Positions 10,689-22,676 of a DNA stretch of 32,000 nt are shown here, one piece after another. The notes under the pieces were generated by a model, which made no database searches, was not told the origin of the DNA, and saw only the letters and a list, made by a program, of their open reading frames with translations. Every line of letters starts with the position of its first letter. Position 1 is the first letter of the stretch. Origin of the DNA: Candidatus Baldrarchaeum yapensis (GTDB lineage: Archaea > Asgardarchaeota > Baldrarchaeia > Baldrarchaeales > Baldrarchaeaceae). The stretch is taken from positions 11,803 through 43,802 of the forward strand of contig JAEOSH010000015.1 of the NCBI GenBank assembly GCA_016840465.1, read 5' to 3'. A program made the translations under genes and the position numbers.

Positions 10689-10735
10689 GGCAGAAACGTA
10701 TAGTGTTGCATTCGTTGCTTTTATGCACTTTTCCA
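10689..10735 (+). repeat. Truncated left-end remnant of the element at 12391/20357
   Basis: GGCAGAAACGTATAG is identical to 12389-12403. The following GTGTTGCATT matches copy 2. Confidence 0.5.
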
Positions 10736-11265: not shown

Positions 11266-11862
11266 ATGAGCAATAAAAGCGCGATAGGAGAACAGGCGCA
11301 AGAGCGAGGCTTCCCAGTGGGCAAACTTAAGGAATGGATAGAGAAAGGCCACCTTAGATACGACGAGAACGGGAGGCTAATTCTCGGAGTCCCAGTTGTG
11401 ATAATTCCACGTGAGGATCTTGCGGAAATTCAAAAAGCGGCGGAAGAAATCCTAGGAGAAAATGGGGCCGCCGTGATAATGTACAGGGCTGGCTTTAAGC
11501 ATGGTTACCGACATGCCGGAATTTACAAAAATAATTTTGGACTAGAGCAATTTGATATATTAGATAAACATCTCTCGGTGACCGCAGCGACAGGATGGTG
11601 GGGAAAGCACGAAATCGTGGAAAAGTCCCTAGATCCCCTGAAGGTCGTTATTCGCTTCTATAACAGTATCGCAGAGGAATGGAAAGGTACCGACAGAAGT
11701 GTATGTCACATATGGCGCGGAGTCATCGCAGGGATTCTGACATTTATTGCCGAGAGCATGGGGAAACAGGTGAAAATCCGGTGTTACGAATCAAAATGTG
11801 TGGCAAAAGGCGACCCCTACTGTGAAATAGTTGCAGAGGAGTTGTTTGAGGTTAAAAAATGA
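11266..11862 (+). CDS. V4R (4-vinyl reductase) domain protein
   Basis: MYRAGFKHG, TGWWG, VCHIWRGVIAGIL, ESKCVAKGDPYCEI. ATG 11266 follows GGAGGA; the longer ORF-track start is unlikely. Confidence 0.88.
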   Translation: MSNKSAIGEQAQERGFPVGKLKEWIEKGHLRYDENGRLILGVPVVIIPREDLAEIQKAAEEILGENGAAVIMYRAGFKHGYRHAGIYKNNFGLEQFDILDKHLSVTAATGWWGKHEIVEKSLDPLKVVIRFYNSIAEEWKGTDRSVCHIWRGVIAGILTFIAESMGKQVKIRCYESKCVAKGDPYCEIVAEELFEVKK

Positions 11863-11932
11863 TCACACGGCTCAAAGTATCATTTTCATGTTTTTATAGA
11901 ACTGGAAAATAAACGTTGAGCAAGAAAGTACG

Positions 11933-12329
11933 TCATATGCGAAATCTTACGGAGGTCAATGCGCCCAGAACAAATAACTCCATAAGGGCTTGGAGCAGCC
12001 CGGGAAGCCTCTCAATCGCAACTTCCCCAACGGCCTGAGCATGTGCGATGTCTCATTCTCCCTGAAGAATCTCTTTCCACAGTTTTGCGGTGGTCTTTAT
12101 TGTATAGTTTGGCTTCTCAGCCTCCCCTTCGTAGAACTCCGCCTTTCCGTCCTTCAGATCTATATAGAATGGATCCTCTCCCTCAAGCTTTAGTTGTATT
12201 ACTCTGTTTATTGATACTGTTTTTCTGAAGATCCTCATGAGCATCTTGAGTTCTCCCCTCAGAATCCTTTCTGCAGTCTCTATCCTATTCCACTTTCACA
12301 TTTTTTGTGAGTTCATTCACCTCGCCCAT
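11933..12329 (-). pseudogene. SCP2 sterol/lipid-carrier domain remnant
   Basis: INRVIQLKLEGEDPFYIDLKDGKAEFYEGEAEKPNYTIKTTAKLWKEILQGE, then in-frame TGA (12053-12055), then DIAHAQAVGEVAIE. The 5' part is disrupted. Confidence 0.7.
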
Positions 12330-12344
12330 CCTTATCACCACCAT

Positions 12345-12783
12345 CACTTGACCTTCCTTAAATTTTAGCATTTCACGCATGTCATCTGGGCAGAAACGTA
12401 TAGAACTTTTGCGGCTCAGAACCTTTATAAAGGAAGGCCACGTTACGCCAAGTGAGCTCCGCCCGGGATGTGGGAAGGGCGGGGTGAAGGAGTCAGATGG
12501 ATGTGCGGAGTCATCGTTCCCCGCGAAAAGCCCATCGATGAGGCTCGAGGCGGGAAGGCTCTTTGTCATGCGTGCATCAAAAGTTATGAAAGTGGCAGAG
12601 AGTCAGAACGGTTGCAATCTCCCTATCAAACTCCTTTGCAGTCCTAACGACCTTTTCTACGAGTTCAGCGTTGCTCCTTACCAGAACTCCCTTCTTGAGG
12701 AAAACGTTATCCTTAAGTCTGACCTTCACGTGTCTTCCCATGACGATCGAAAGCGTCGCCATCGGGAACTTATACGCACCAAT
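12345..12783 (-). pseudogene. kce: 3' fragment of beta-keto acid cleavage enzyme (DUF849/kce family), interrupted by the 220-bp element
   Basis: IGAYKFPMATLSIVMGRHVKVRLKDNVFLKKGVLVRSNAELVEKVVRTAKEFDREIAT|PDDMREMLK; degenerate form of GGHVRVGLEDN. Confidence 0.8.
12391..12610 (+). mobile_element. Non-autonomous structured element, copy 1 (IS200/IS605 tnpB/omegaRNA-like derivative)
   Basis: Removing it restores ATT GCA ACC CCA GAT (IATPD) in kce with no target duplication. Homologous to 20081-20357. Starts CAGAAAC, ends GAGAGTCAGAACG. Family assignment is inference. Confidence 0.75.
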
Positions 12784-13020
12784 GTTGCTATAGTAAACTA
12801 CTCCTATGAAGGACAACCGATGAAACCACCGTATGTACTGGGAATGGTGAGGCTTGACGGGGCGGATAATGACTTTAGGCACTTCATAGGTGAGGTCGAT
12901 CTGAGCGACCTAGAGAAGGCCGCAAAGTAACTTGGAGAGTAAGCTTGGCGCGAAAGTTGAGGTTGTTTAGAACGAAGAAAGGAAAGGGATTTCACTGATA
13001 TTAGGTACATCATAAGGATT
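12781..13020 (+). pseudogene. 3' fragment of a second DUF35 OB-fold gene
   Basis: AIVNYSYEGQPMKPPYVLGMVRLDGADNDFRHFIGEVD, then broken frames giving KLGAKVEVV*NEERKG / TDIRY. Confidence 0.7.
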
Positions 13021-13097
13021 AATCGAGTGAGAAAAATACTATTAATGCAACAATGGTCGAACTTCTCTCAACACCATTTTTATACGGAGGTGCGAGC

Positions 13098-14210
13098 ATG
13101 CCGGAGAAGACAATATGGACCCCCCTATGTGATCTCCTAGGAATAAAGTATCCAATAATACAATCGCCAATGGGACCTTTTGTCACAACAAACTTGTGCG
13201 CAGCTGTCTCGAACGCTGGTGGCTTGGGAACCATCAGCCACTCCGGTGTCGGTAAAATTCTGATGATGTGTGCTCCCGAACTCTATGAGGCTGCAAAGAA
13301 GAGCATGTTAATGCCTGATCTTGACGCCGAGAGCGAAATAATGAATAGAGATCCAATAACGGAGCTCCGAAAAGTGACTAAGATGACGGACAGACCAATA
13401 GGAATTAATGTCAGAGTTTCAAGTAGAGAGGTAGATGCCCCTTACCTTATAGATATGATTCTCGACGAGTATGAGAACAATCCGAATGTTAGGAGAATCC
13501 TGAAGGTTGTCATAACGTCCGCGGGGAATCCCAAGAGATTTACGAAGAAGTTGAAGGATGCAGGACTTATAGTCTTCCATGTGGTCCCCTCAACATACCA
13601 CGCGAGAAAAGCCTTAGAGGCAGGTGTCGATGGTGTAATTGCGTCGGGGCATGAAGCAGGTGGTCACGTATCGTATGATCCGGTTCACACGAGTGTTTTG
13701 TTACCAGCAGTGGTCGATATTGTTAAGAAGGAAAACCCGGAGATGCCAGTGGTCTCCGCGGGTGGATGGTGTGATGGGAGGGGGCTTGCAGCTGCGTTAA
13801 TGTTGGGTGCGGATGGAATTGCAATGGGAACGAGATTCATAGCGACGAAGGAGAGTGACTTCGCACAAGGTTATAAGGAGAAAATACTTGAGGCCTCCGA
13901 CAGAGACACCGTGGTCGTTCCTGGGATTTTAGGTCCGATCAGAGGAATAAAAAACAAGTTCGTGATGACGTTGCTAAAGATGCTGGAGGAGGGAATGAAG
14001 GAGGACAATCCGGAGTTCCTGAGGTTCAAAAACGATCCTAAGAAGTGGGAGGCTTCATATGTGCATGGAGACAAGGAAAACGGCCCAGTGTGGGCAGGAG
14101 AAGTATCTGGTAGGATAAAGGATCTTCCATCCGTGAAGGAGTTAATAGAGAGGATAATAAGGGAGGCAGTTGAGGTTCTGGAGAGCATTCCATCGAAAGT
14201 TATTCGCTAA
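13098..14210 (+). CDS. Nitronate monooxygenase / FabK-like FMN-dependent oxidoreductase
   Basis: LLGIKYPIIQSPMG, VSNAGGLGTI, GHEAGGH, SAGGWCDGRGLAAALMLGADGIAMGTRF, WAGEVSG. RBS GGAGGTG precedes ATG 13098. Confidence 0.9.
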   Translation: MPEKTIWTPLCDLLGIKYPIIQSPMGPFVTTNLCAAVSNAGGLGTISHSGVGKILMMCAPELYEAAKKSMLMPDLDAESEIMNRDPITELRKVTKMTDRPIGINVRVSSREVDAPYLIDMILDEYENNPNVRRILKVVITSAGNPKRFTKKLKDAGLIVFHVVPSTYHARKALEAGVDGVIASGHEAGGHVSYDPVHTSVLLPAVVDIVKKENPEMPVVSAGGWCDGRGLAAALMLGADGIAMGTRFIATKESDFAQGYKEKILEASDRDTVVVPGILGPIRGIKNKFVMTLLKMLEEGMKEDNPEFLRFKNDPKKWEASYVHGDKENGPVWAGEVSGRIKDLPSVKELIERIIREAVEVLESIPSKVIR

Positions 14211-14231
14211 ATTATTTTTTCCAATTTTTAT
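14211..14231 (+). terminator. Archaeal oligo-T terminator-like tract
   Basis: ATTATTTTTTCCAATTTTTAT directly after the stop codon. Confidence 0.4.
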
Positions 14232-14527
14232 TTGCGCTCTTCGATTTCCTTTAAGCGTGATAGGTTGGGTGAAAACGGCGAAGTCAAGTATTATATTTCG
14301 CTAATTAAATTAATTTGTTGTTGAATATTATATTTACAGAACTTTTGAACTCTCATGTTTATTTTGTTGTCATATGGTGACGAGACAGGTATCTGAAATA
14401 TGCATTTTTGTTTTAAGACCTCAAATTTATAGCCTCTTCCCGCTCTTAGAGCATAATAATAAAATACGCAATATCCGGTCGTAAGGATGAACTCTCGTCT
14501 TAAAAAGAGGCGTTGGAGGATCAAGGT

Positions 14528-15544
14528 ATGGTCGAGGTGCTTTATGAGGGAGAAGGAGAGCTTTTGGGCTGGGAAGATCCAGACGAAATGAGAAAATGGA
14601 TCAGAGAGAATAAGCCGAGGGAGATGGTTGACAAGACGATGGACCTGAAGGAGGCGATTTCGAAGTTCGTGAGAGACGGGTGCTACATAGCGTTTGGCGG
14701 ATTCGGACACATTAGGGTGTCCATGGCAGCCATTTACGAGATAATAAGGCAAAAGAAGCGGAACCTGATAATGGCGGGGAAGACCGCTGTCCATGATGTC
14801 GACATACTGGTGGCAGCTGGATGTGTGAGCAAGGTCGAGGTTGCATATTGTTTCGGGCATGAACTGAGAGGTTTGAGTCCCGCAAGTAGGAGAAAGGTAG
14901 AACATGGTGAGGTCAAGGTTGCAACCGAGTGGAGCAACGCCGGCTTCCAATGGAGGTTCCTAGCGGCGGCGATGGGACTTCCGTTCATACCCACTCGTGT
15001 GATGCTCGGAACCGATACTTTAAGGAAAAGTTCTGCCAAGGTGATAAGAGATCCGTTCAGCGGAAAGCCAATTGCGCTATTGCCGGCGTGTTATCCAGAT
15101 GTTGTGATAATGCACGTCCATAGGTGTGACATTTACGGAAACGCACAGATAGATGGAATCCTTGTGGAAGACTTTGAACTTGCGAGGGCTGCGAGAAGGC
15201 TTATCATCACCACTGAGGAGATCGTAGACCACGAGCTTATAAGGAGAGAACCATGGAAAACTGTGATTCCGTACTTCTTAGTAGATGCTGTTGTCGAGGT
15301 TCCGTGGGGATCACACCCATGTAACATGCCGTACCTGTACTATTTCGATGAGGAGCACATTGCCGAGTGGTTGCGGATGTCGAGGACCGATGAGGGGGTC
15401 GAGCAGTACCTTGAGAAGTACGTTTACAGTGTGGACTCATTTGAGGAGTACCTTGAGAAGATAGGCGGAATTAAGAAGTTGAATTATCTTAAGAAGTTGG
15501 AGCATCTTAGGGCACCATTAGTTGCGCCGTGGGCCCAAGGGTGA
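14528..15544 (+). CDS. Family I CoA-transferase subunit A (glutaconate CoA-transferase-like)
   Basis: AISKFVRDG, AFGGF, AAAMGLPFIP, PDVVIMHVHRCDIYGNAQI, VDAVVEVPWGSHP. Confidence 0.9.
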   Translation: MVEVLYEGEGELLGWEDPDEMRKWIRENKPREMVDKTMDLKEAISKFVRDGCYIAFGGFGHIRVSMAAIYEIIRQKKRNLIMAGKTAVHDVDILVAAGCVSKVEVAYCFGHELRGLSPASRRKVEHGEVKVATEWSNAGFQWRFLAAAMGLPFIPTRVMLGTDTLRKSSAKVIRDPFSGKPIALLPACYPDVVIMHVHRCDIYGNAQIDGILVEDFELARAARRLIITTEEIVDHELIRREPWKTVIPYFLVDAVVEVPWGSHPCNMPYLYYFDEEHIAEWLRMSRTDEGVEQYLEKYVYSVDSFEEYLEKIGGIKKLNYLKKLEHLRAPLVAPWAQG

Positions 15545-15557
15545 GGAGGTAAGTGAG

Positions 15558-16334
15558 ATGGGTGAGAGGAAGTATACAACTCTTGAGTTGATGGCGTGTG
15601 TTGCTGCAAGATTATTAGAGGACAAGAAGGCAGTATTTGTAGGGACAGGACTTCCAATGATTGCAGCGTCCCTTGCACAGAGAATGCATGCACCAAATCT
15701 TCTGATAATTTTTGAGGCTGGCGGCATAGGGCCGCAGATACCAGTACTGCCAATATCCGTTGGTGATTCTAGAACGTTCTACAGGGCAATTGCAGCGTCA
15801 AGTATGCATGATGTGATGTCACTCTCACAAAAAGGGTATGTCGACTACGGGTTCCTCGGTGCTGCCCAGATAGACATGTACGGGAATATAAACACCACCG
15901 TGATCGGAGATTGGGAAAGACCCAAAGTCAGGCTTCCAGGTAGTGGTGGTGCAAACGATGTCGGGTCCCTCTGCCATAGGACTATCATAATAATGAGGCA
16001 AGATCCCAGAAGGTTCGTGCCCAAGGTGGACTTCATAACCACCCCTGGGTACTTAGATGGACCAGGTGCTAGGGAAAAAGCAGGACTTCCGGCAGGGTCA
16101 GGACCTTACAGGGTAATAACACAGTTGGGCGTTTACGGCTTCGATGAGAAAACAAAGAGAATGAAATTGCTGTCGGTGCATCCGGGTGTTACGATAGAGG
16201 ACATTAAGAAAAACTCAAGCTTCGAAATTATAATTCCGGACGAGGTCGATACCACAGAGCCACCGACTGAAGAGGAGCTTAAGATACTACATGAAATTGA
16301 TCCAGTGGGCATGGTTCTCGGAAGAAAGAAATGA
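15558..16334 (+). CDS. Family I CoA-transferase subunit B
   Basis: FVGTGLP, IFEAG (catalytic Glu), FLGAAQIDMYGNINTT, LPGSGGAND, VDFITTPG. Confidence 0.9.
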   Translation: MGERKYTTLELMACVAARLLEDKKAVFVGTGLPMIAASLAQRMHAPNLLIIFEAGGIGPQIPVLPISVGDSRTFYRAIAASSMHDVMSLSQKGYVDYGFLGAAQIDMYGNINTTVIGDWERPKVRLPGSGGANDVGSLCHRTIIIMRQDPRRFVPKVDFITTPGYLDGPGAREKAGLPAGSGPYRVITQLGVYGFDEKTKRMKLLSVHPGVTIEDIKKNSSFEIIIPDEVDTTEPPTEEELKILHEIDPVGMVLGRKK

Positions 16335-16379
16335 ATCACGAAATTCCTCATCACTCTTTTTGCCTGGAATCGAAATCGC

Positions 16380-16540
16380 TTAATATTTTTTTATTTTTAA
16401 GTCTGGCACTCTGAAGAAGTGCCGAATATTTCGGGTAACGAGGCGGAGATCGTGCACGAGTGCTGTTGCCGCGATGAAGAGGATGTCCTTCAGATCTATA
16501 TGCTATATGCTATTAGGAAATCGGTATCGAAGAGGTACAT
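16380..16540 (-). pseudogene. vapC: PIN-domain VapC toxin with large internal deletion
   Basis: MYLFDTDFLIAY is joined out of frame to DILFIAATALVHDLRLVTRNIRHFFRVPDLKI; the central part of the PIN domain is missing. Confidence 0.8.
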
Positions 16541-16575
16541 TAATCAGTCATCCATTTCTCGAGAATCTCCGATTT

Positions 16576-16796
16576 TCACCTTTTATAAAGCTTTGTTCTC
16601 ATCTCTCTCGTCCTTTTTAGAAATTTCTCAATTTTTCTGCTTCTTCACGACTTAGAATATTCATCTTGGCAATATCCGCGATCTTCGGACGTGATTTTAT
16701 CAACCTTCTTATTACATCACTAAAGCTCTCGCTCGGTAGTTTTGGTCTTCTTAGCATGTTATAGACATCATCGGCAATTGTAATAGCGCATGCCAT
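16576..16796 (-). pseudogene. VapB-like (DUF217-type) antitoxin, likely frameshifted in an A5 run
   Basis: AITIADDVYNMLRRPKLPSESFSDVIRRL. One extra A at 16632-16636 extends it as EKIEKFLKRTREMRTKLYKR*. As written it stops at 16617. Confidence 0.6.
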
Positions 16797-16899
16797 CTCT
16801 GACTTCCTCCGATTGGAACATTTCTGGCCTTTCATGTTATCATATTATGCATCTTCACGTTACTCTTGAGAAGTGATGAGTGGTGCAATTTTATTTTTG

Positions 16900-18450
16900 C
16901 TACTTGTACGGGGCAATCGAGCGGTTTGATGGACATAATGGACGGACTTCTACGTCCCCCCGGATCTTCTTGAACTGCTTTATGAACTCCTTGGAGTGTT
17001 GCGGTGTTATGAACAGATATATCTTCTGGAAAGATCTTATGATTCTGTGCACATCCTTATTTCGTGAGAATACCTCCATATCGTGGATCTTCCCGTCGCT
17101 TATCACGACAAGAATCTCCTTCTTCACTTCCTTATCCACAAGCCTAAATGCGGGGGTAAACATCGTTCCGCCATGGGTATATATGCCCTGTATTCTCTCC
17201 AGCGCGTAATAAAGGTTCTGCGTCGGTTTCACTATGTACCGGGAGTACTCTCCGAACCCTATTATGCTTATCTCACTGGGCTTTTCGTTCTTTATGAGGG
17301 AGGCAAGCATCCTGACAAGGTGGTATTCGTAGCCCGCCATACTTCCTGAAAGATCCAGCAGGACGGTTATCTTCCTCTTTCTCTTCTTTCTGCGGACGGT
17401 GTTGTATCCGGGAATCACCGGGTAGCGGGTGAAGGTCTTGGGGAGATCCAACTCAGATGGCGGGTCGCCACATCTCCAGATGGTGTACTCGTAATCGGGC
17501 ACGTCCCTCGACTCGTCGAGTTCCACGGTTGCGAGGATCTTCTCTATCTTGTATCTCGGTTGGAGAGGTTCTTCCTTGTCGATCACCTTCAGTGTTCCCA
17601 TTCCCACGCCTCCGCCCCTCTGGAGCAACGCCTTCAGTTTCTCCTTCTCATTACCGAGCATTCCCCGTTTCTTCAACTCCTCTAGGATCTTTCTGACGAT
17701 GTACGGTGCGGGGGTGAGACGGGATCTCAGGTTCTGCTCGAACTCCTTCCTCAACTTGTTGAAGAAGTCCTCGCCCAGTTCCTGCAGTGCCTGTTTCAGG
17801 TCGCTGAAGTTTCGGGAAAACATGTTGTAGAATCGCCAGTGCGTGTTGTACCAGAAGAGCCTGTAGAGTTCGGGGAGGTTTCCGAACATCATGAAGAGTT
17901 CGTCGAGTATGTAGGCGAGAAGTGCGGCCTTTATTTTCACGTTAACGTCCGCATTCAGCACTTCCTTTATTGCATTGTAGTAGGGGACAAACTTGTCGGG
18001 TATTCGGAACTTCTCGCCGTACAGGGAGTTATAGGTGATCTCATCGACGAGTTTCATGTAGTAGTTTCGCGAGCGCACTATGCACTCCTCGAAGCACTTC
18101 ACGTAGTGTTCAAAGATTCTGGGGGACTTTTCGCCCAGTATTTTCCTGCTCATGCTCTCGGCGAGCATCCCGTAGACTATATACCTCACCATGTAGTTCT
18201 TCTTCGAGAGTATTGGAAAGGCGGGCGTGAGATTCTTCTGGGCAATGAGATGCAGTATTCTGTTCCAGAACTCGTAAAACAGTGCGAACTTCGGAAGACG
18301 TTTTACAACAGCCCGCGTCATGTGTATTACGAGTGGGTTATCGCTCTTGTCTTCACTTTTCTCCGTAATAATTAGCCTGAATGGCTTTTTGTAGAGTTTC
18401 CTTGCGAGCATGGTCATGAAGTCCAGGTAGCTTTCATTACTTAGTTCCAA
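16900..18450 (-). CDS. VWA-domain protein, MoxR partner
   Basis: C-terminal VWA with complete MIDAS (LLDLSGSM, GGT, ISDG), Gly linker GGGVGMG, about 300 aa unknown helical N-terminus; overlaps ATPase stop by 14 nt. Confidence 0.85.
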   Translation of the reverse strand: MELSNESYLDFMTMLARKLYKKPFRLIITEKSEDKSDNPLVIHMTRAVVKRLPKFALFYEFWNRILHLIAQKNLTPAFPILSKKNYMVRYIVYGMLAESMSRKILGEKSPRIFEHYVKCFEECIVRSRNYYMKLVDEITYNSLYGEKFRIPDKFVPYYNAIKEVLNADVNVKIKAALLAYILDELFMMFGNLPELYRLFWYNTHWRFYNMFSRNFSDLKQALQELGEDFFNKLRKEFEQNLRSRLTPAPYIVRKILEELKKRGMLGNEKEKLKALLQRGGGVGMGTLKVIDKEEPLQPRYKIEKILATVELDESRDVPDYEYTIWRCGDPPSELDLPKTFTRYPVIPGYNTVRRKKRKRKITVLLDLSGSMAGYEYHLVRMLASLIKNEKPSEISIIGFGEYSRYIVKPTQNLYYALERIQGIYTHGGTMFTPAFRLVDKEVKKEILVVISDGKIHDMEVFSRNKDVHRIIRSFQKIYLFITPQHSKEFIKQFKKIRGDVEVRPLCPSNRSIAPYK

Positions 18451-19648
18451 TGGCCAGCCCCTCTAAAAACTCCTTTGAGAAGATCTTCTCCAACTCGGCG
18501 AGGATGTCATTATATATGTGTCTCACACTTAAATCTCTGTCTGCAATTTCGGCGAGTGCCTCTACGAGGGGTACGACCTCGGCTCCCTCGACGCCCTCCT
18601 CTATTTTCGCCATTATCTTCTCGACTATCGCAATGGCCTCGCGCCAGTCGTCCATGTGCTTCACAATATAGTCCCTGACGAGTTTGTAGTCCCTGACGTG
18701 CTGAGTCAGCAGAACCTCCGCCGCCTTTCTTACATCCTCCTCGGAAACCTCCTTGCGCGAATACATCCAAGCCAACGCCTTTGAGAGTCTGGCTATGTTT
18801 ATCGCGAGCCTTAGGCCGACAGGCTCATCAACACGGGAACATAGACCCTCCTCATATTTACAGACCTTTCTGCGCCCGCCGTAGAAGTCGCTAGATATGG
18901 TGCTACATATTCTCTCGTCATAGCAACATTGTAATGAGCGGCTCACGAGCGTGATGAGCAACTTGCAATGTTCGGGGATTGTGACCTTTGTTACGTCCTC
19001 CTGTGCCTCTTTTAATTCCTCATAACTTATGATTTCCTCCGTTATGAGTTCGGACACATCCACTATGTCCTTACCATCAAATCTCTCCTTTAAAACTTCG
19101 AGTTCATCAAATGCCCGTGGAACATCGAGAGTGAGTTTAATAAACCTATCAGCGAGGGCCTTATCGAGAGGGCCGCGATAGGGGTTGCCATCCGCTATCA
19201 CTATTATATCCTTACAGACTTTCTTCTCGCCGTACGCTATTATTTCCCTCTCCTGGAGCAACCTGAGAAGTTCGTCCTGTACCGCTTGGCTTGCTCGGTT
19301 CAATTCGTTAAAGAATATGAGTTCGTTTCCCTTTATTTCCCAAATTACCTCTTTACGCCCCTGCTTTATCAATTCGGGTATGTTGAGGCGGTACAGGTGG
19401 TTTTCTAGGCTGACCATCGAGGGATTGCAGAATATTATCTTCTTCTCGACACCAAGCGCCTTTTCGAGACACCTGACGATCTGGGTTTTTCCTATTCCCG
19501 GAATCCCCTCTAGGTATATGTTTGCCTTTATCAGGAGGCAGGCGACAAAAGCGTCCTCTATGTGGTATTGTCCCTTCACCATGTTGAAGAGAATGTCCCG
19601 AAGCTTCAGGATTTTGTCCTGATGTACGAATTTTGGACCGTCATACAT
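18437..19648 (-). CDS. MoxR-like AAA+ ATPase
   Basis: Walker A EGIPGIGKT, Walker B region IFFNELNRA, ADGNP, LDKALADRF. ATG 19648 is preferred because TTTTATATA lies about 45 nt upstream. Confidence 0.88.
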   Translation of the reverse strand: MYDGPKFVHQDKILKLRDILFNMVKGQYHIEDAFVACLLIKANIYLEGIPGIGKTQIVRCLEKALGVEKKIIFCNPSMVSLENHLYRLNIPELIKQGRKEVIWEIKGNELIFFNELNRASQAVQDELLRLLQEREIIAYGEKKVCKDIIVIADGNPYRGPLDKALADRFIKLTLDVPRAFDELEVLKERFDGKDIVDVSELITEEIISYEELKEAQEDVTKVTIPEHCKLLITLVSRSLQCCYDERICSTISSDFYGGRRKVCKYEEGLCSRVDEPVGLRLAINIARLSKALAWMYSRKEVSEEDVRKAAEVLLTQHVRDYKLVRDYIVKHMDDWREAIAIVEKIMAKIEEGVEGAEVVPLVEALAEIADRDLSVRHIYNDILAELEKIFSKEFLEGLAIGTK

Positions 19649-20080
19649 GAGATGAAACCCCACCTGATCGTAAAAATTAGGTGATATTGTAGTATATAAA
19701 AATAAGCATCGCACCAATTACTGCTCACGGAAAATTCTGGGATGAGCAGTGTATACACGTATTGGCGAATTTGCATTTTAGGAGATGTCTTCCTTCATTT
19801 TCCAGCGGTGGTAGAATGTCCGTATTTGTATGTTGTGCTCGGAAGTACCAATAACAGCCTCATCTGAGGAAATGAAAACCTTTTACTCCGACATGCGAGT
19901 TTTACATTCTTTTGTTCCGTAAAATGCGATGATAGATTTTCTAGTGGTTTCTTTGTATTAGTGCGTTCCCGGTGAGTTTATCCGGCGCATTTTGCAGGTT
20001 TATCAATACTTTGTAAGAGGTGGAGATTACTTTCTCTGAGGAGGCCTTGTTGAGAAATATGCTCGTTTCCCCTTTTGGAC

Positions 20081-20357
20081 CGTTCTGACTCTCCGCCACT
20101 TTCATAACTTTTGATACACGCGTGGCGGGGAGCCTTCCCGCCTCGGGCCTCATCGATGAGCCTTCGCGGGGAACGGTGACCCCGCACATCCATCTGACCC
20201 CTTCGCTCCGCTCTTTCGGGCTTTCCCTCCCTCCTACCGCCCTTTCCACAATTCCGGGCGGAGATCACTCGGCGTAACGGGGCCTTCCTTTATAAAGGTT
20301 CTAGGCCACAAAGGTTGTCGTATGTTACAAATGCAACACCATATGGACAGGTTTCTG
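20081..20357 (-). mobile_element. Non-autonomous structured element, copy 2 (longer)
   Basis: Reverse-strand homolog of 12391-12610 with the same CAGAAAC start and GAGAGTCAGAACG end; carries about 57 extra nt relative to copy 1. Confidence 0.75.
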
Positions 20358-20731
20358 AACATTCGCCTCGTGCCGAAGTAACAGGAGGTTGCGAATACGT
20401 CATTCACCAAGATTTTGGCATTTGGGTTCTTGAGAAAACGCTGATTCCGGTCACTTTAATTCTCGAGTTGTGGGTACGATCTTCGGATTGCATATGTAGG
20501 AATCGCTCGAATAATTCCGTATATGGGCTCTATAATGCCATAAAATCCCACAACTACGTCGCATAACTAATGGGTTTCGTATTATCATATTGAAATCGTG
20601 GTCGAGCAGGAATAATACCTAGCATTTGGTTCCATGCATACTCTCTCAAAGTTCGGGGCATGTGGTGACTGCGGAAGAAGTTTCGAGAAGTTTGACGTCT
20701 ATGTTAATGGAACGAAAGAGGTGCTAGACTG

Positions 20732-21868
20732 GTGAAAAAGGGAAGAGTGGAGTTTTGGAACGGCAACATTGCATGTGCCGAGGGGGCAATTGCCGCCGGG
20801 TGCAGGTTCTTTGCCGGGTATCCCATAACACCGTCATCTGAAATTTTGGAACACATGGCGAAAAGGATGCCCGAGGTTGGAGGAGTGTTTATACAGATGG
20901 AAGACGAACTTGCAGCCATAGCTGCGGTGATAGGGGCGTCCTGGGGTGGAGTGAAGGCGATGACGGCGACTTCAGGTCCGGGGTTTAGTCTCATGCAGGA
21001 GGGAATAGGGTATGCCTGCATGACCGAAACTCCATGTGTGATAGTAGATGTTCAGAGGGCTGGGCCGAGCACCGGGCAGGCGACAAAGGCGGCTCAGGGG
21101 GATGTGATGCAGGCAAGGTGGGGGACCCACGGGGATCATGAAATAATAGCGCTTGCGCCGAATTCCCCGCAGGAAATGTTCGACCTTACGGTGAGGGCCT
21201 TTAATCTGTCTGAGATGTACAGGGTTCCAGTGATAGTGCTCGCTGACGAGATAGTTGCGCACATGTGGGAGAAGGTGCGCATACCCGATGATATAGAAAT
21301 AGTCAATAGGAGAAAACCCTCCAGACCGGACGAGCAGATATTCGGCCACGAACTTGATACCGGAGTTCCGCCAATGCCAGCCTTCGGTGAGGGGTATAAC
21401 CTCCTCGTCACCGGATCGACTCACGATGGGTACGGGTTTAGAAAAACGGCAGATCCCCTGGTTCACCGCAAGCTTGTCACCCGCTTAGTAAATAAAATAA
21501 GGAAGAACGCGGAGAAAATCGTTGATTTCGAAATTTATGGTTGTGATCCCGAGGATGCCGAGGTGATGGTCGTATCTTACGGTTGCACTTCCAGATCTGC
21601 AGATGAGGCGGTCAGGCAGGCATTGGAGGAGGGGATTAAAGCGATAAATTTCAGGCTAAGAACAATATGGCCATTCCCGGAAAAAGCGCTGAGGGAGTTG
21701 GCGGAAAGAGTGAAGCTGATAGTCGTACCGGAGATGAACCTCGGGCAACTGTACTTTGAGGTGGAGAGAGTGGCGTGTGGAAGATGTCCCGTCATCCTTG
21801 TTTCTAGAATAGGCGGCGGGGAGATGGTGAGGCCGCAGGATATACTTCGTGAACTGAGGAGGGCTTAA
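20732..21868 (+). CDS. korA: 2-oxoacid:ferredoxin oxidoreductase alpha subunit
   Basis: GCRFFAGYPITPSSEI, QMEDELAA, TATSGPGFSLMQEG, QRAGPSTG. Substrate not determinable. Confidence 0.92.
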   Translation: MKKGRVEFWNGNIACAEGAIAAGCRFFAGYPITPSSEILEHMAKRMPEVGGVFIQMEDELAAIAAVIGASWGGVKAMTATSGPGFSLMQEGIGYACMTETPCVIVDVQRAGPSTGQATKAAQGDVMQARWGTHGDHEIIALAPNSPQEMFDLTVRAFNLSEMYRVPVIVLADEIVAHMWEKVRIPDDIEIVNRRKPSRPDEQIFGHELDTGVPPMPAFGEGYNLLVTGSTHDGYGFRKTADPLVHRKLVTRLVNKIRKNAEKIVDFEIYGCDPEDAEVMVVSYGCTSRSADEAVRQALEEGIKAINFRLRTIWPFPEKALRELAERVKLIVVPEMNLGQLYFEVERVACGRCPVILVSRIGGGEMVRPQDILRELRRA

Positions 21869-21869
21869 G

Positions 21870-22676
21870 ATGAAAGAGCACTTTGCTATCAAGTATTTGA
21901 GGAGAGAAATTCTCCCGACAGTCTTCTGTCCGGGATGTGGGAACGGCATAGTGATTAACTGCTTCCTCAAAGCGGTGAGCGACCTTGGCTATGAAGACCT
22001 CTCCGGGTTTGCGTTCGTTTCAGGCATAGGATGTGCCTCTTGGTGCATTTCGCCGTACTTTAAGGCGGATACTCTACATACCCTTCACGGAAGACCAATA
22101 GCATTTGCAACCGGACTTAAGTTGGCAAGACCAGATCTTCAGGTAGTTGTGATCAGTGGAGATGGTGACCTAGCAGGAATCGGGGGGAACCACCTCATAC
22201 ACGCGGCGCGGAGGAATATGGATCTCCTCGTGATATGTATTAATAACTTAAACTACGGGATGACGGGAGGGCAGGTTTCCCCTACAACCCCCGAAAATGT
22301 CACTACCACGACGAGCCCCTATGGAAATATAGAGCCGCCCTTCAGACTAGCTGAGTTGGTTGCGGCGGCAGGTGCGAATCTATCAGCCAGATGGACGACA
22401 TACCACGTGGGGCAGATTATATCCACTATAAAGAAGGGGCTTAAGAAGGAGGGCTTCCGCTTTATTGAGGTGATATCCCAATGTCCGACAAACTTCGGTA
22501 GAAGGATAGGGATTGACAAGCCGCCGGATCTCGTCAAGTGGATCAGGAGTATTTGCACCGTTAAGAAAGAGAATTCGAACGAAAAACTTAGGTTGGGAAT
22601 AATATGTGAACGCTATCGCCCGGGCTACGTTTCTGTCCTCAAAAGTTTGATGGAGAGGGTGAGAGGTGAGGGTTGA
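21870..22676 (+). CDS. korB: 2-oxoacid:ferredoxin oxidoreductase beta subunit (TPP-binding)
   Basis: FCPGCGNG, SGIGC, HTLHGRP, SGDGD...NN, YGMTGGQVSPTT, SQCPT. Confidence 0.92.
   Translation: MKEHFAIKYLRREILPTVFCPGCGNGIVINCFLKAVSDLGYEDLSGFAFVSGIGCASWCISPYFKADTLHTLHGRPIAFATGLKLARPDLQVVVISGDGDLAGIGGNHLIHAARRNMDLLVICINNLNYGMTGGQVSPTTPENVTTTTSPYGNIEPPFRLAELVAAAGANLSARWTTYHVGQIISTIKKGLKKEGFRFIEVISQCPTNFGRRIGIDKPPDLVKWIRSICTVKKENSNEKLRLGIICERYRPGYVSVLKSLMERVRGEG

Follow-up and report, generated by a model that had tools for sequence, protein, structure and literature searches.

The window analyzed here is a stretch of 32,000 nucleotides (C76:11803-43802) from the genome of an Asgard archaeon that is the sole member of its GTDB family, in a class of five genomes; the assembly comprises 2.27 Mb in 100 contigs and is 96% complete. 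Two related short elements lie in the window, copy A on the plus strand and copy B on the minus strand (Table 1). Copy A sits within what is left of a BKACE (kce-like) gene, a C-terminal remnant on the minus strand (Pfam, 54.7 bits), and copy B is intergenic, flanked by genes for a MoxR-like AAA ATPase and a POR alpha subunit. The two parts of the BKACE remnant cover only positions 205-263 of the 274 in the Pfam profile, and a ChsH2-type OB-fold domain is represented on the opposite strand by a weak fragment at about 12790-12927. The region around copy A looks like a patch of gene debris.

Table 1. Positions of the two mini-elements, their parts and their neighbors (coordinates are those of the window).
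Feature	Position	Strand	Remarks
Solo left-end fragment, same family	10691-10733	+	AAGG followed by CAGAAACGTATAGTGTTGCATTCGTTGC...; C76:22491-22537, 85% identity
BKACE (kce-like) C-terminal remnant	12613-12909 and 12285-12390	-	Split by copy A
TAM-like/target motif of copy A, CTGGG	12386-12390	+	5' flank
Mini-element (MITE) copy A	12391-12611	+	220-221 nt; degenerate, two internal deletions; BLAST match to copy B
Left-end terminus of copy A, CAGAAACGTATAG	12391-12403	+	From a 14-copy alignment; the TGTTGCA repeats that follow it are deleted in copy A
TATA box of copy A, TTTATAAA	12424-12431	+	5 nt before the match to the RNA model begins; putative promoter
OmegaRNA-type scaffold of copy A	12437-12611	+	Ends ...GAGAGUCAGAACGG; covariance model R1, 145.8 bits, E 1.5e-50
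Putative guide of copy A, TTGCAATCTCCCTATCAAAC	12612-12631	+	Inside the BKACE remnant; inter-copy similarity stops here
MoxR-like AAA ATPase gene	18440-19717	-	Neighbor of copy B
Putative guide of copy B, TCCAAAAGGGGAAACGAGCA	20060-20079	-	Inter-copy similarity stops here
Mini-element copy B	20080-20357	-	278 nt; most diverged full copy; intergenic
OmegaRNA-type scaffold of copy B	20080-20283	-	Covariance model R1, 182.6 bits, E 1.4e-63
TATA box of copy B, TTTATAAA	20289-20296	-	From aligned copies; putative promoter
POR alpha-subunit gene	20732-21865	+	Neighbor of copy B

An initial annotation, made from the letters of the window, had placed related copies at 12391-12610 (+) and 20081-20357 (-), and both were found there. 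BLAST of copy A against the genome returned copy B with an E value of 1.2e-51, and a repeat search recovered three collinear inverted-repeat blocks of 80-89% identity between 12404-12612 and 20079-20316. The common termini described for the two copies are real, with CAGAAAC... on the left, ...GAGAGTCAGAACG(G) on the right (both copies finish in ...GAGAGTCAGAACGG), and unrelated sequence beyond; the right boundary of copy A falls at 12610 or 12611, a one-G ambiguity. Aligned over their full length, the copies show 193 matches, 22 transitions, 4 transversions, and 59 gap columns. Our recount of the 3' 127-128 nt gave 15 transitions, no transversions, and one indel, so that the original count of 14 transitions and one indel over the 3' 127 nt was essentially right.

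The description "two full copies" understates the family, for which a genome-wide BLAST check of copy number gave 13 or more full copies and fragments besides, and overstates A and B, which are degenerate and more decayed than any other full member. Compared with the family consensus, copy A is missing approximately 30 nt of left-end subterminal repeats and approximately 34 nt from the 5' domain of the RNA. Copy B carries about 6 extra nt past CAGAAAC, has TGTT instead of GG in its 5' flank, and is only 77-80% identical to other family members. Copies A and B seem to be of an older mini-element subfamily. In its left end (…TTGTAACATACGACAAC…; 20284-20357, minus strand), copy B is closer to a stand-alone copy in a sister-family genome (L057, in G004:C92) than to the 11 younger copies with which it shares a genome.

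The mini-element family and its parent

The 13 full copies share one common architecture and deletion junction and have differing flanks, as copies mobilized after the deletion would, and several of them are located inside genes (BKACE, ATPase_2). Several copies lie at contig ends, and the repeat therefore probably breaks the assembly. In the aligned copies, the consensus of about 270 nt runs from a 5' flank of GG, mostly GGGG, through CAGAAACGTATAG, TGTTGCA-type repeats, AAAACC(C/T)TTATAAAGGA, and approximately 200 nt of GC-rich sequence to GAGAGTCAGAACGG, after which the 3' flank is unrelated from copy to copy. Judged by its letters, AAAACC(C/T)TTATAAAGGA reads as an archaeal BRE/TATA box; the motif C(T/C)TTATAAAGGA is kept in 13/13 full copies and in the sister-family stand-alone copy L057, and the promoter segment was not found in any of the full-length relatives compared. 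At a length of 220-278 nt, the mini-element has no coding capacity beyond remnants of the TnpB zinc finger and C-terminal tail. Its earlier description as non-coding, non-autonomous, and lacking terminal inverted repeats is supported. Two of the copies (C39:1-297 and C69:3169-3465) have an identical 29-nt left flank and 97.6% identity over 297 nt, with differing 3' flanks; contig C39 begins just 29 nt before its copy, and this likeness may be an assembly artefact at the repeat or the product of recombination between copies.

A search of the genome for a full tnpA/tnpB parent with the same ends led to contig C96, where a Pfam search for TnpB domains showed an intact tnpB that lies immediately 5' of a match to the right end. 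The C96 element is approximately 1.85 kb long. It starts GGG followed by CTGAAACGTATAGTGTTGCATT, the same terminus as the mini-element left end (24/25 identical), and ends GAGAGTCAGAACGG, with 81-93% identity to the mini-element right end over 115-117 nt; the tnpB origin proposed for the 3' part is thus borne out by a matching tnpB 3' end. Its tnpA encodes 204 aa with Resolvase and HTH domains and scores 237 bits against NF033518 (IS607-family transposase; cut-off 110), and its tnpB is an open frame of 436 aa that scores 162 bits against NF040570 (RNA-guided endonuclease TnpB). The intact RuvC D/E/D set (GVDVN, ALESL, ADRD) and zinc finger (CPICG...CECG) of this TnpB were read from its sequence, and relatives of the protein are present in the PDB. 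The frame ...KVMKVAESQNG, which the initial annotation had likened to a TnpB C-terminal tail, is a true TnpB remnant with matches to a TnpB from the same genome: the tail of copy B is identical to residues 368-402 of that protein at 25/35 positions (71%, E 6e-14), and that of copy A, read in the frame that follows its indel, to residues 369-402 at 22/34 (65%, E 8e-12). The parent tnpB (L030:628-1938; approximately 26.8-28.1 kb on C96) has no stop inside the element, running as ...KVAESQNG through the right end and stopping 33 codons into an interrupted sulfatase gene. In close relatives the tnpB stop lies either just past the right end, in the flank (L126, L131), or 12-25 nt short of that end; in the C96 tnpB subfamily the TnpB C-terminus hence depends on the insertion site.

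The family first suggested for these elements was IS200/IS605, a label that does not survive the comparison with the parent. Were it correct, A and B would be PATEs moved as single-stranded DNA by a Y1 TnpA, and such elements would share with the window copies the lack of terminal inverted repeats and a tnpB-derived 3' end; the left end can also form an imperfect hairpin (GTTGCA...TGCAAC). However, the Y1 transposase profile (PF01797) had no match in this 96%-complete genome, whereas the same search matched in six control genomes. The genome contains three intact IS607-type tnpA genes, and the only element with the ends of the mini-element, that on C96, carries an IS607 serine recombinase. Given the serine recombinase in the parent and the lack of a Y1 match, we assign the parent to IS607 and not to IS200/IS605, and the GG or GGGG flank and the scaffold end CGG follow IS607 rules as well; a Y1-mobilized origin is almost certainly wrong. 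The parent is likewise neither an IS110 nor a TIR-type transposon, either of which the initial annotation had held to be incompatible with its reading. Further IS607-type tnpA/tnpB pairs, with ends unlike those of the mini-element family, occur at C55:21100-22690, C96:32162-33779 (minus strand), and C23:744-2637.

The mini-element would have originated by an internal deletion that took tnpA and nearly all of tnpB. What the deletion would have kept is about 50 nt of left end with the TGTTGCA-type subterminal repeats, the TATA box, and the last ~200 nt of the parent, comprising the tnpB 3' end and the right end, a part that serves as the omegaRNA/reRNA scaffold in TnpB systems.

The RNA scaffold and its conservation

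A covariance model (R1) was built from 13 mini-element copies, with an RNAalifold prediction of 51 pairs. Within the window R1 matched exactly twice, in copies A and B (Table 1). Two other resemblances to copy A, neither of them matched by the model, were rejected: that between 12533-12560 and 1100-1127 is a chance match in an unrelated coding region, and that between 12458-12487 and 21925-21954, in a CPGCG-type coding stretch, looks coincidental. Along all of its 200 positions, R1 also aligns to the final 242 nt of the parent (C96:27785-28026; 106 bits), overlapping the coding region for the tnpB zinc finger and C-terminus; homology to the tnpB 3' end and the right end thus extends over the entire GC-rich part of the mini-element. 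Of 150 other genomes from the phylum, 9 contained matches to R1. They belong to four other GTDB families, and the matches in them lie at IS607 tnpB 3' ends, several with an IS607 tnpA upstream, or stand alone; in the stand-alone matches a TATA-like box again comes after a related left end, and nearly all R1 matches end in AGAACGG. Rfam contained no family that reached its gathering threshold anywhere in the window, and a search of 12300-12700 at E values up to 10 returned a chance lncRNA as its sole match.

The RNA fold is conserved, as supported by covariation among 31 sequences from 10 Asgard genomes. Consensus pairs form in 88% of alignment cells and, in slid controls with partners displaced by 1-3 columns, in 44-50%. 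Fitting of the alignment to the model favors the structure, but the margin over the slid controls is large. Compensatory changes on both sides occur at 37/51 pairs and include 13/13 pairs of the terminal stem and 9/9 of helix 3. None of 500 shuffles came up to the observed values.

How far this fold persists in the two window copies bears on whether they are inert fossils of IS607 mini-elements, having lost transcription and use by TnpB, with sequences that reflect descent only. The damage itself would fit such a reading: copy A has no left-end subterminal repeats and a scaffold whose 5' domain is 34 nt short, copy B has diverged to 77-80% identity and is without the GG flank, and the differences between the two are nearly all transitions, as expected from neutral deamination in a thermophile. 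Yet the TATA box is intact in both copies, and consensus pairs that can be scored (i.e., are ungapped) still form at 34/37 positions in copy A (92%) and 44/50 in copy B (88%). Stem substitutions between A and B are mostly C-to-U on the RNA-sense strand, and the pair is kept in both copies at 7/8 scorable sites, through G-U pairing or, once, a compensated U-A pair. A sister-family genome also carries the same older subtype (L057). On this evidence we regard complete inertness of both copies as unlikely. Copy A, without its left-end repeats, is probably no longer mobile, judging from its sequence, but has retained its promoter box and most of the fold.

Flanks, putative guides, and a proposed mechanism

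The sequence directly before the left end is GG at 16 of 17 left ends of the family, extended to GGGG or TGGG in most. On the other side, all 15 right ends finish CAGAACGG (...GG), followed by unrelated sequence. The initial annotation had drawn attention to the differing 3' flanks of the window copies, and the sequence 3' of ...CAGAACG(G) indeed differs in every copy, as would be expected for a flank-derived guide. The 16-mer of the copy A guide occurs only once in the genome when up to one mismatch is allowed, and that of copy B is unique even at two mismatches. For the family as a whole, none of the 15 guides has a target elsewhere in the genome at up to one mismatch, and two-mismatch matches occur at about the number expected by chance. 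This lack of second targets fits homing to the element's own site and not regulation of other loci.

Both stretches are, in our judgment, likely to be copies of a gene-less MITE of about 270 nt that derives from an archaeal IS607 element and carries the transposon ends, a promoter box, and a TnpB omegaRNA scaffold, the RNA of which we propose to serve as a guide in trans. The TATA box would drive transcription of a structured RNA of approximately 200 nt that ends ...CAGAACGG and continues into the flank, so that each copy would supply a scaffold plus a copy-specific guide of about 16-20 nt. The 5' end of this RNA was placed from the TATA box only, and the usual spacing would put the start downstream of consensus helix 1, a point that counts against the proposal. 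Among public sequencing runs recorded as RNA, none was found to contain the window. The intact C96 TnpB would load the mini-element RNA in trans. Excision by the serine recombinase TnpA would leave a rejoined empty site in which the G-rich flank (GGG/GGGG, acting as TAM) stands beside sequence that matches the guide; TnpB would cut this site, and repair from the sister chromosome would restore the element. Because the ...ACGG of the scaffold, which adjoins the guide in the occupied site, is not a TAM, the occupied site would be spared. In copy B, TGTT stands where the TAM is expected, and on the proposed mechanism cleavage of its empty site might fail.

The broken genes allow the insertion junction to be reconstructed in part. 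At the BKACE site, homologues read ...REIATPDDAR..., which implies that the element adds 1 G; from the homologue frame, the empty site would have had four G and the occupied site has five. Frame arithmetic for the sulfatase gene broken by the C96 element also gives +1 G, whereas an ATPase_2 gene broken on C89 needs +2 G, which corresponds to the canonical GG duplication. Slippage in G runs, assembly error, or a flexible crossover could each explain the difference between +1 and +2 G; the sites fit either a duplicated GG core with later slippage or an overlap of a single base. The +1 G at two sites could also mean that the archaeal IS607 clade recombines in a manner unlike the GG-core model. 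As read from these sequences, the junction is consistent with a GG core to within 1 nt, and the copy A guide may accordingly start at 12611 or 12612. Empty sites were sought in contigs from four metagenome runs covering 11800-20700, and none of these contigs, in which assembly drops rare variants, joins across either element; contigs from runs X2 and X5 bridge both insertions.

Use by the host is a further reading to be weighed, in which the TATA box reads into neighboring genes or the guide steers a (possibly inactive) TnpB to other genomic sites as a regulator in a TldR-like manner. It would draw on the conservation of the promoter and on an RNA that runs past the element into host DNA, as well as on one near-match: the guide of the C11 copy pairs at 17/19 positions with C89:88740-88775, where GAGGG, similar to the TAM-like motif, stands directly before the match and there is no wider homology, and which may be due to chance or be a second target. 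This reading sits poorly with the guides, none of which has a second target at up to one mismatch and which match at two mismatches no more often than chance, and with the C96 TnpB, which retains its catalytic residues. The copies, moreover, occur in both orientations and inside broken genes, as is typical of selfish insertions, and we consider host use highly improbable. Another extension of the trans-guide proposal is that the ~13-20 copies with promoters of their own constitute a dispersed library of independently transcribed guides for a single matching TnpB, with guide supply uncoupled from the nuclease gene in a stage toward CRISPR-like trans guides. We think this quite unlikely; such a library might let TnpB act beyond the transposon's own empty site.

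Comparison with described systems and relatives in other archaea

The closest parallels to the window elements come from IS607 and from other gene-less or stand-alone omegaRNA loci. In the CboIStron of Clostridium botulinum, the best-studied example of IS607-family tnpA-tnpB-omegaRNA elements, the TnpA_S target and the TnpB TAM are both 5'-TGGG and the core is GG (10.1101/2023.11.20.567912; PMC10690162); the occupied site is protected by the UCGG in which the scaffold ends (10.1101/2023.11.20.567912). The C96 parent has the same pairing of a serine recombinase tnpA with tnpB and the same absence of terminal inverted repeats; the left flank is G-rich in both systems (GGGG/TGGG here, TGGG in CboIStron), and the scaffold end is ACGG here vs. 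UCGG there. Unlike CboIStron, the window elements have lost both genes, contain no group I intron, have an archaeal TATA box before the scaffold, reside in an Asgard host, and match no Rfam family.

Stand-alone omegaRNAs are reported to work in trans with compatible effectors (PMC10691335, on Altae-Tran et al., 2021). Those loci resemble ours as mobilized scaffold copies without effector or transposase, with an effector locus in the same genome; the window elements differ from them in deriving from an archaeal IS607, in each having its own promoter box, and in being known from sequence alone. PATEs, gene-less IS200/IS605 derivatives of Haloquadratum and Geobacillus (PMC3119063, PMC10055086), are likewise short, protein-less, and multi-copy, with transposon ends, and often encode omegaRNAs (PMC10055086). 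They need a Y1 TnpA and subterminal hairpins, in contrast to the serine recombinase, TGTTGCA-type repeats, and GG junctions found here. For ISFba1, the portion of PMC11061315 consulted describes an IS607 TnpB with a reRNA derived from RAGATH-18 and the TAMs AGGAG or GAGGG. The IS607 TnpB, a guide RNA downstream of or overlapping the gene, and the G-rich TAMs are points of likeness, whereas ISFba1 is bacterial and its RNA belongs to another family (no Rfam match was obtained here), and that portion of the source does not describe gene-less copies.

The window elements are a clear Asgard example of an element type that has already been described. They provide a clean archaeal (Asgard) case of a promoter-bearing, gene-less IS607 derivative with a TnpB guide-RNA scaffold, and they account for GC-rich "orphan structured RNAs" across the genome as well as for part of the fragmentation of its assembly. 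No principle is changed, as both trans-acting stand-alone omegaRNAs and the homing logic of IS607 TnpB are already published. The practical yield is a covariance model and a set of natural scaffold variants, including the shortened one of copy A, for a TnpB family found under the labels of several archaeal phyla; such variants could help to minimize guide RNAs for thermostable TnpB editors.

Relatives of the C96 TnpB with 55-81% amino-acid identity occur in MAGs labeled Bathyarchaeia, Thermoproteota, Archaeoglobi, Thermococcus, Undinarchaeota, and others. From sequence comparison, this distribution suggests horizontal spread among archaea of hot habitats, with bin contamination as the alternative. 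Recent transfer of the IS607 lineage between archaeal phyla, or again bin contamination, is suggested by TnpBs that are 70-81% identical to the C96 protein (loci L126-L160); these are from MAGs labeled Bathyarchaeia, Thermoproteota, Archaeoglobi, and Undinarchaeota, and at three of these loci (L126, L137, and L153) the left ends share approximately 25 nt with the mini-element family.
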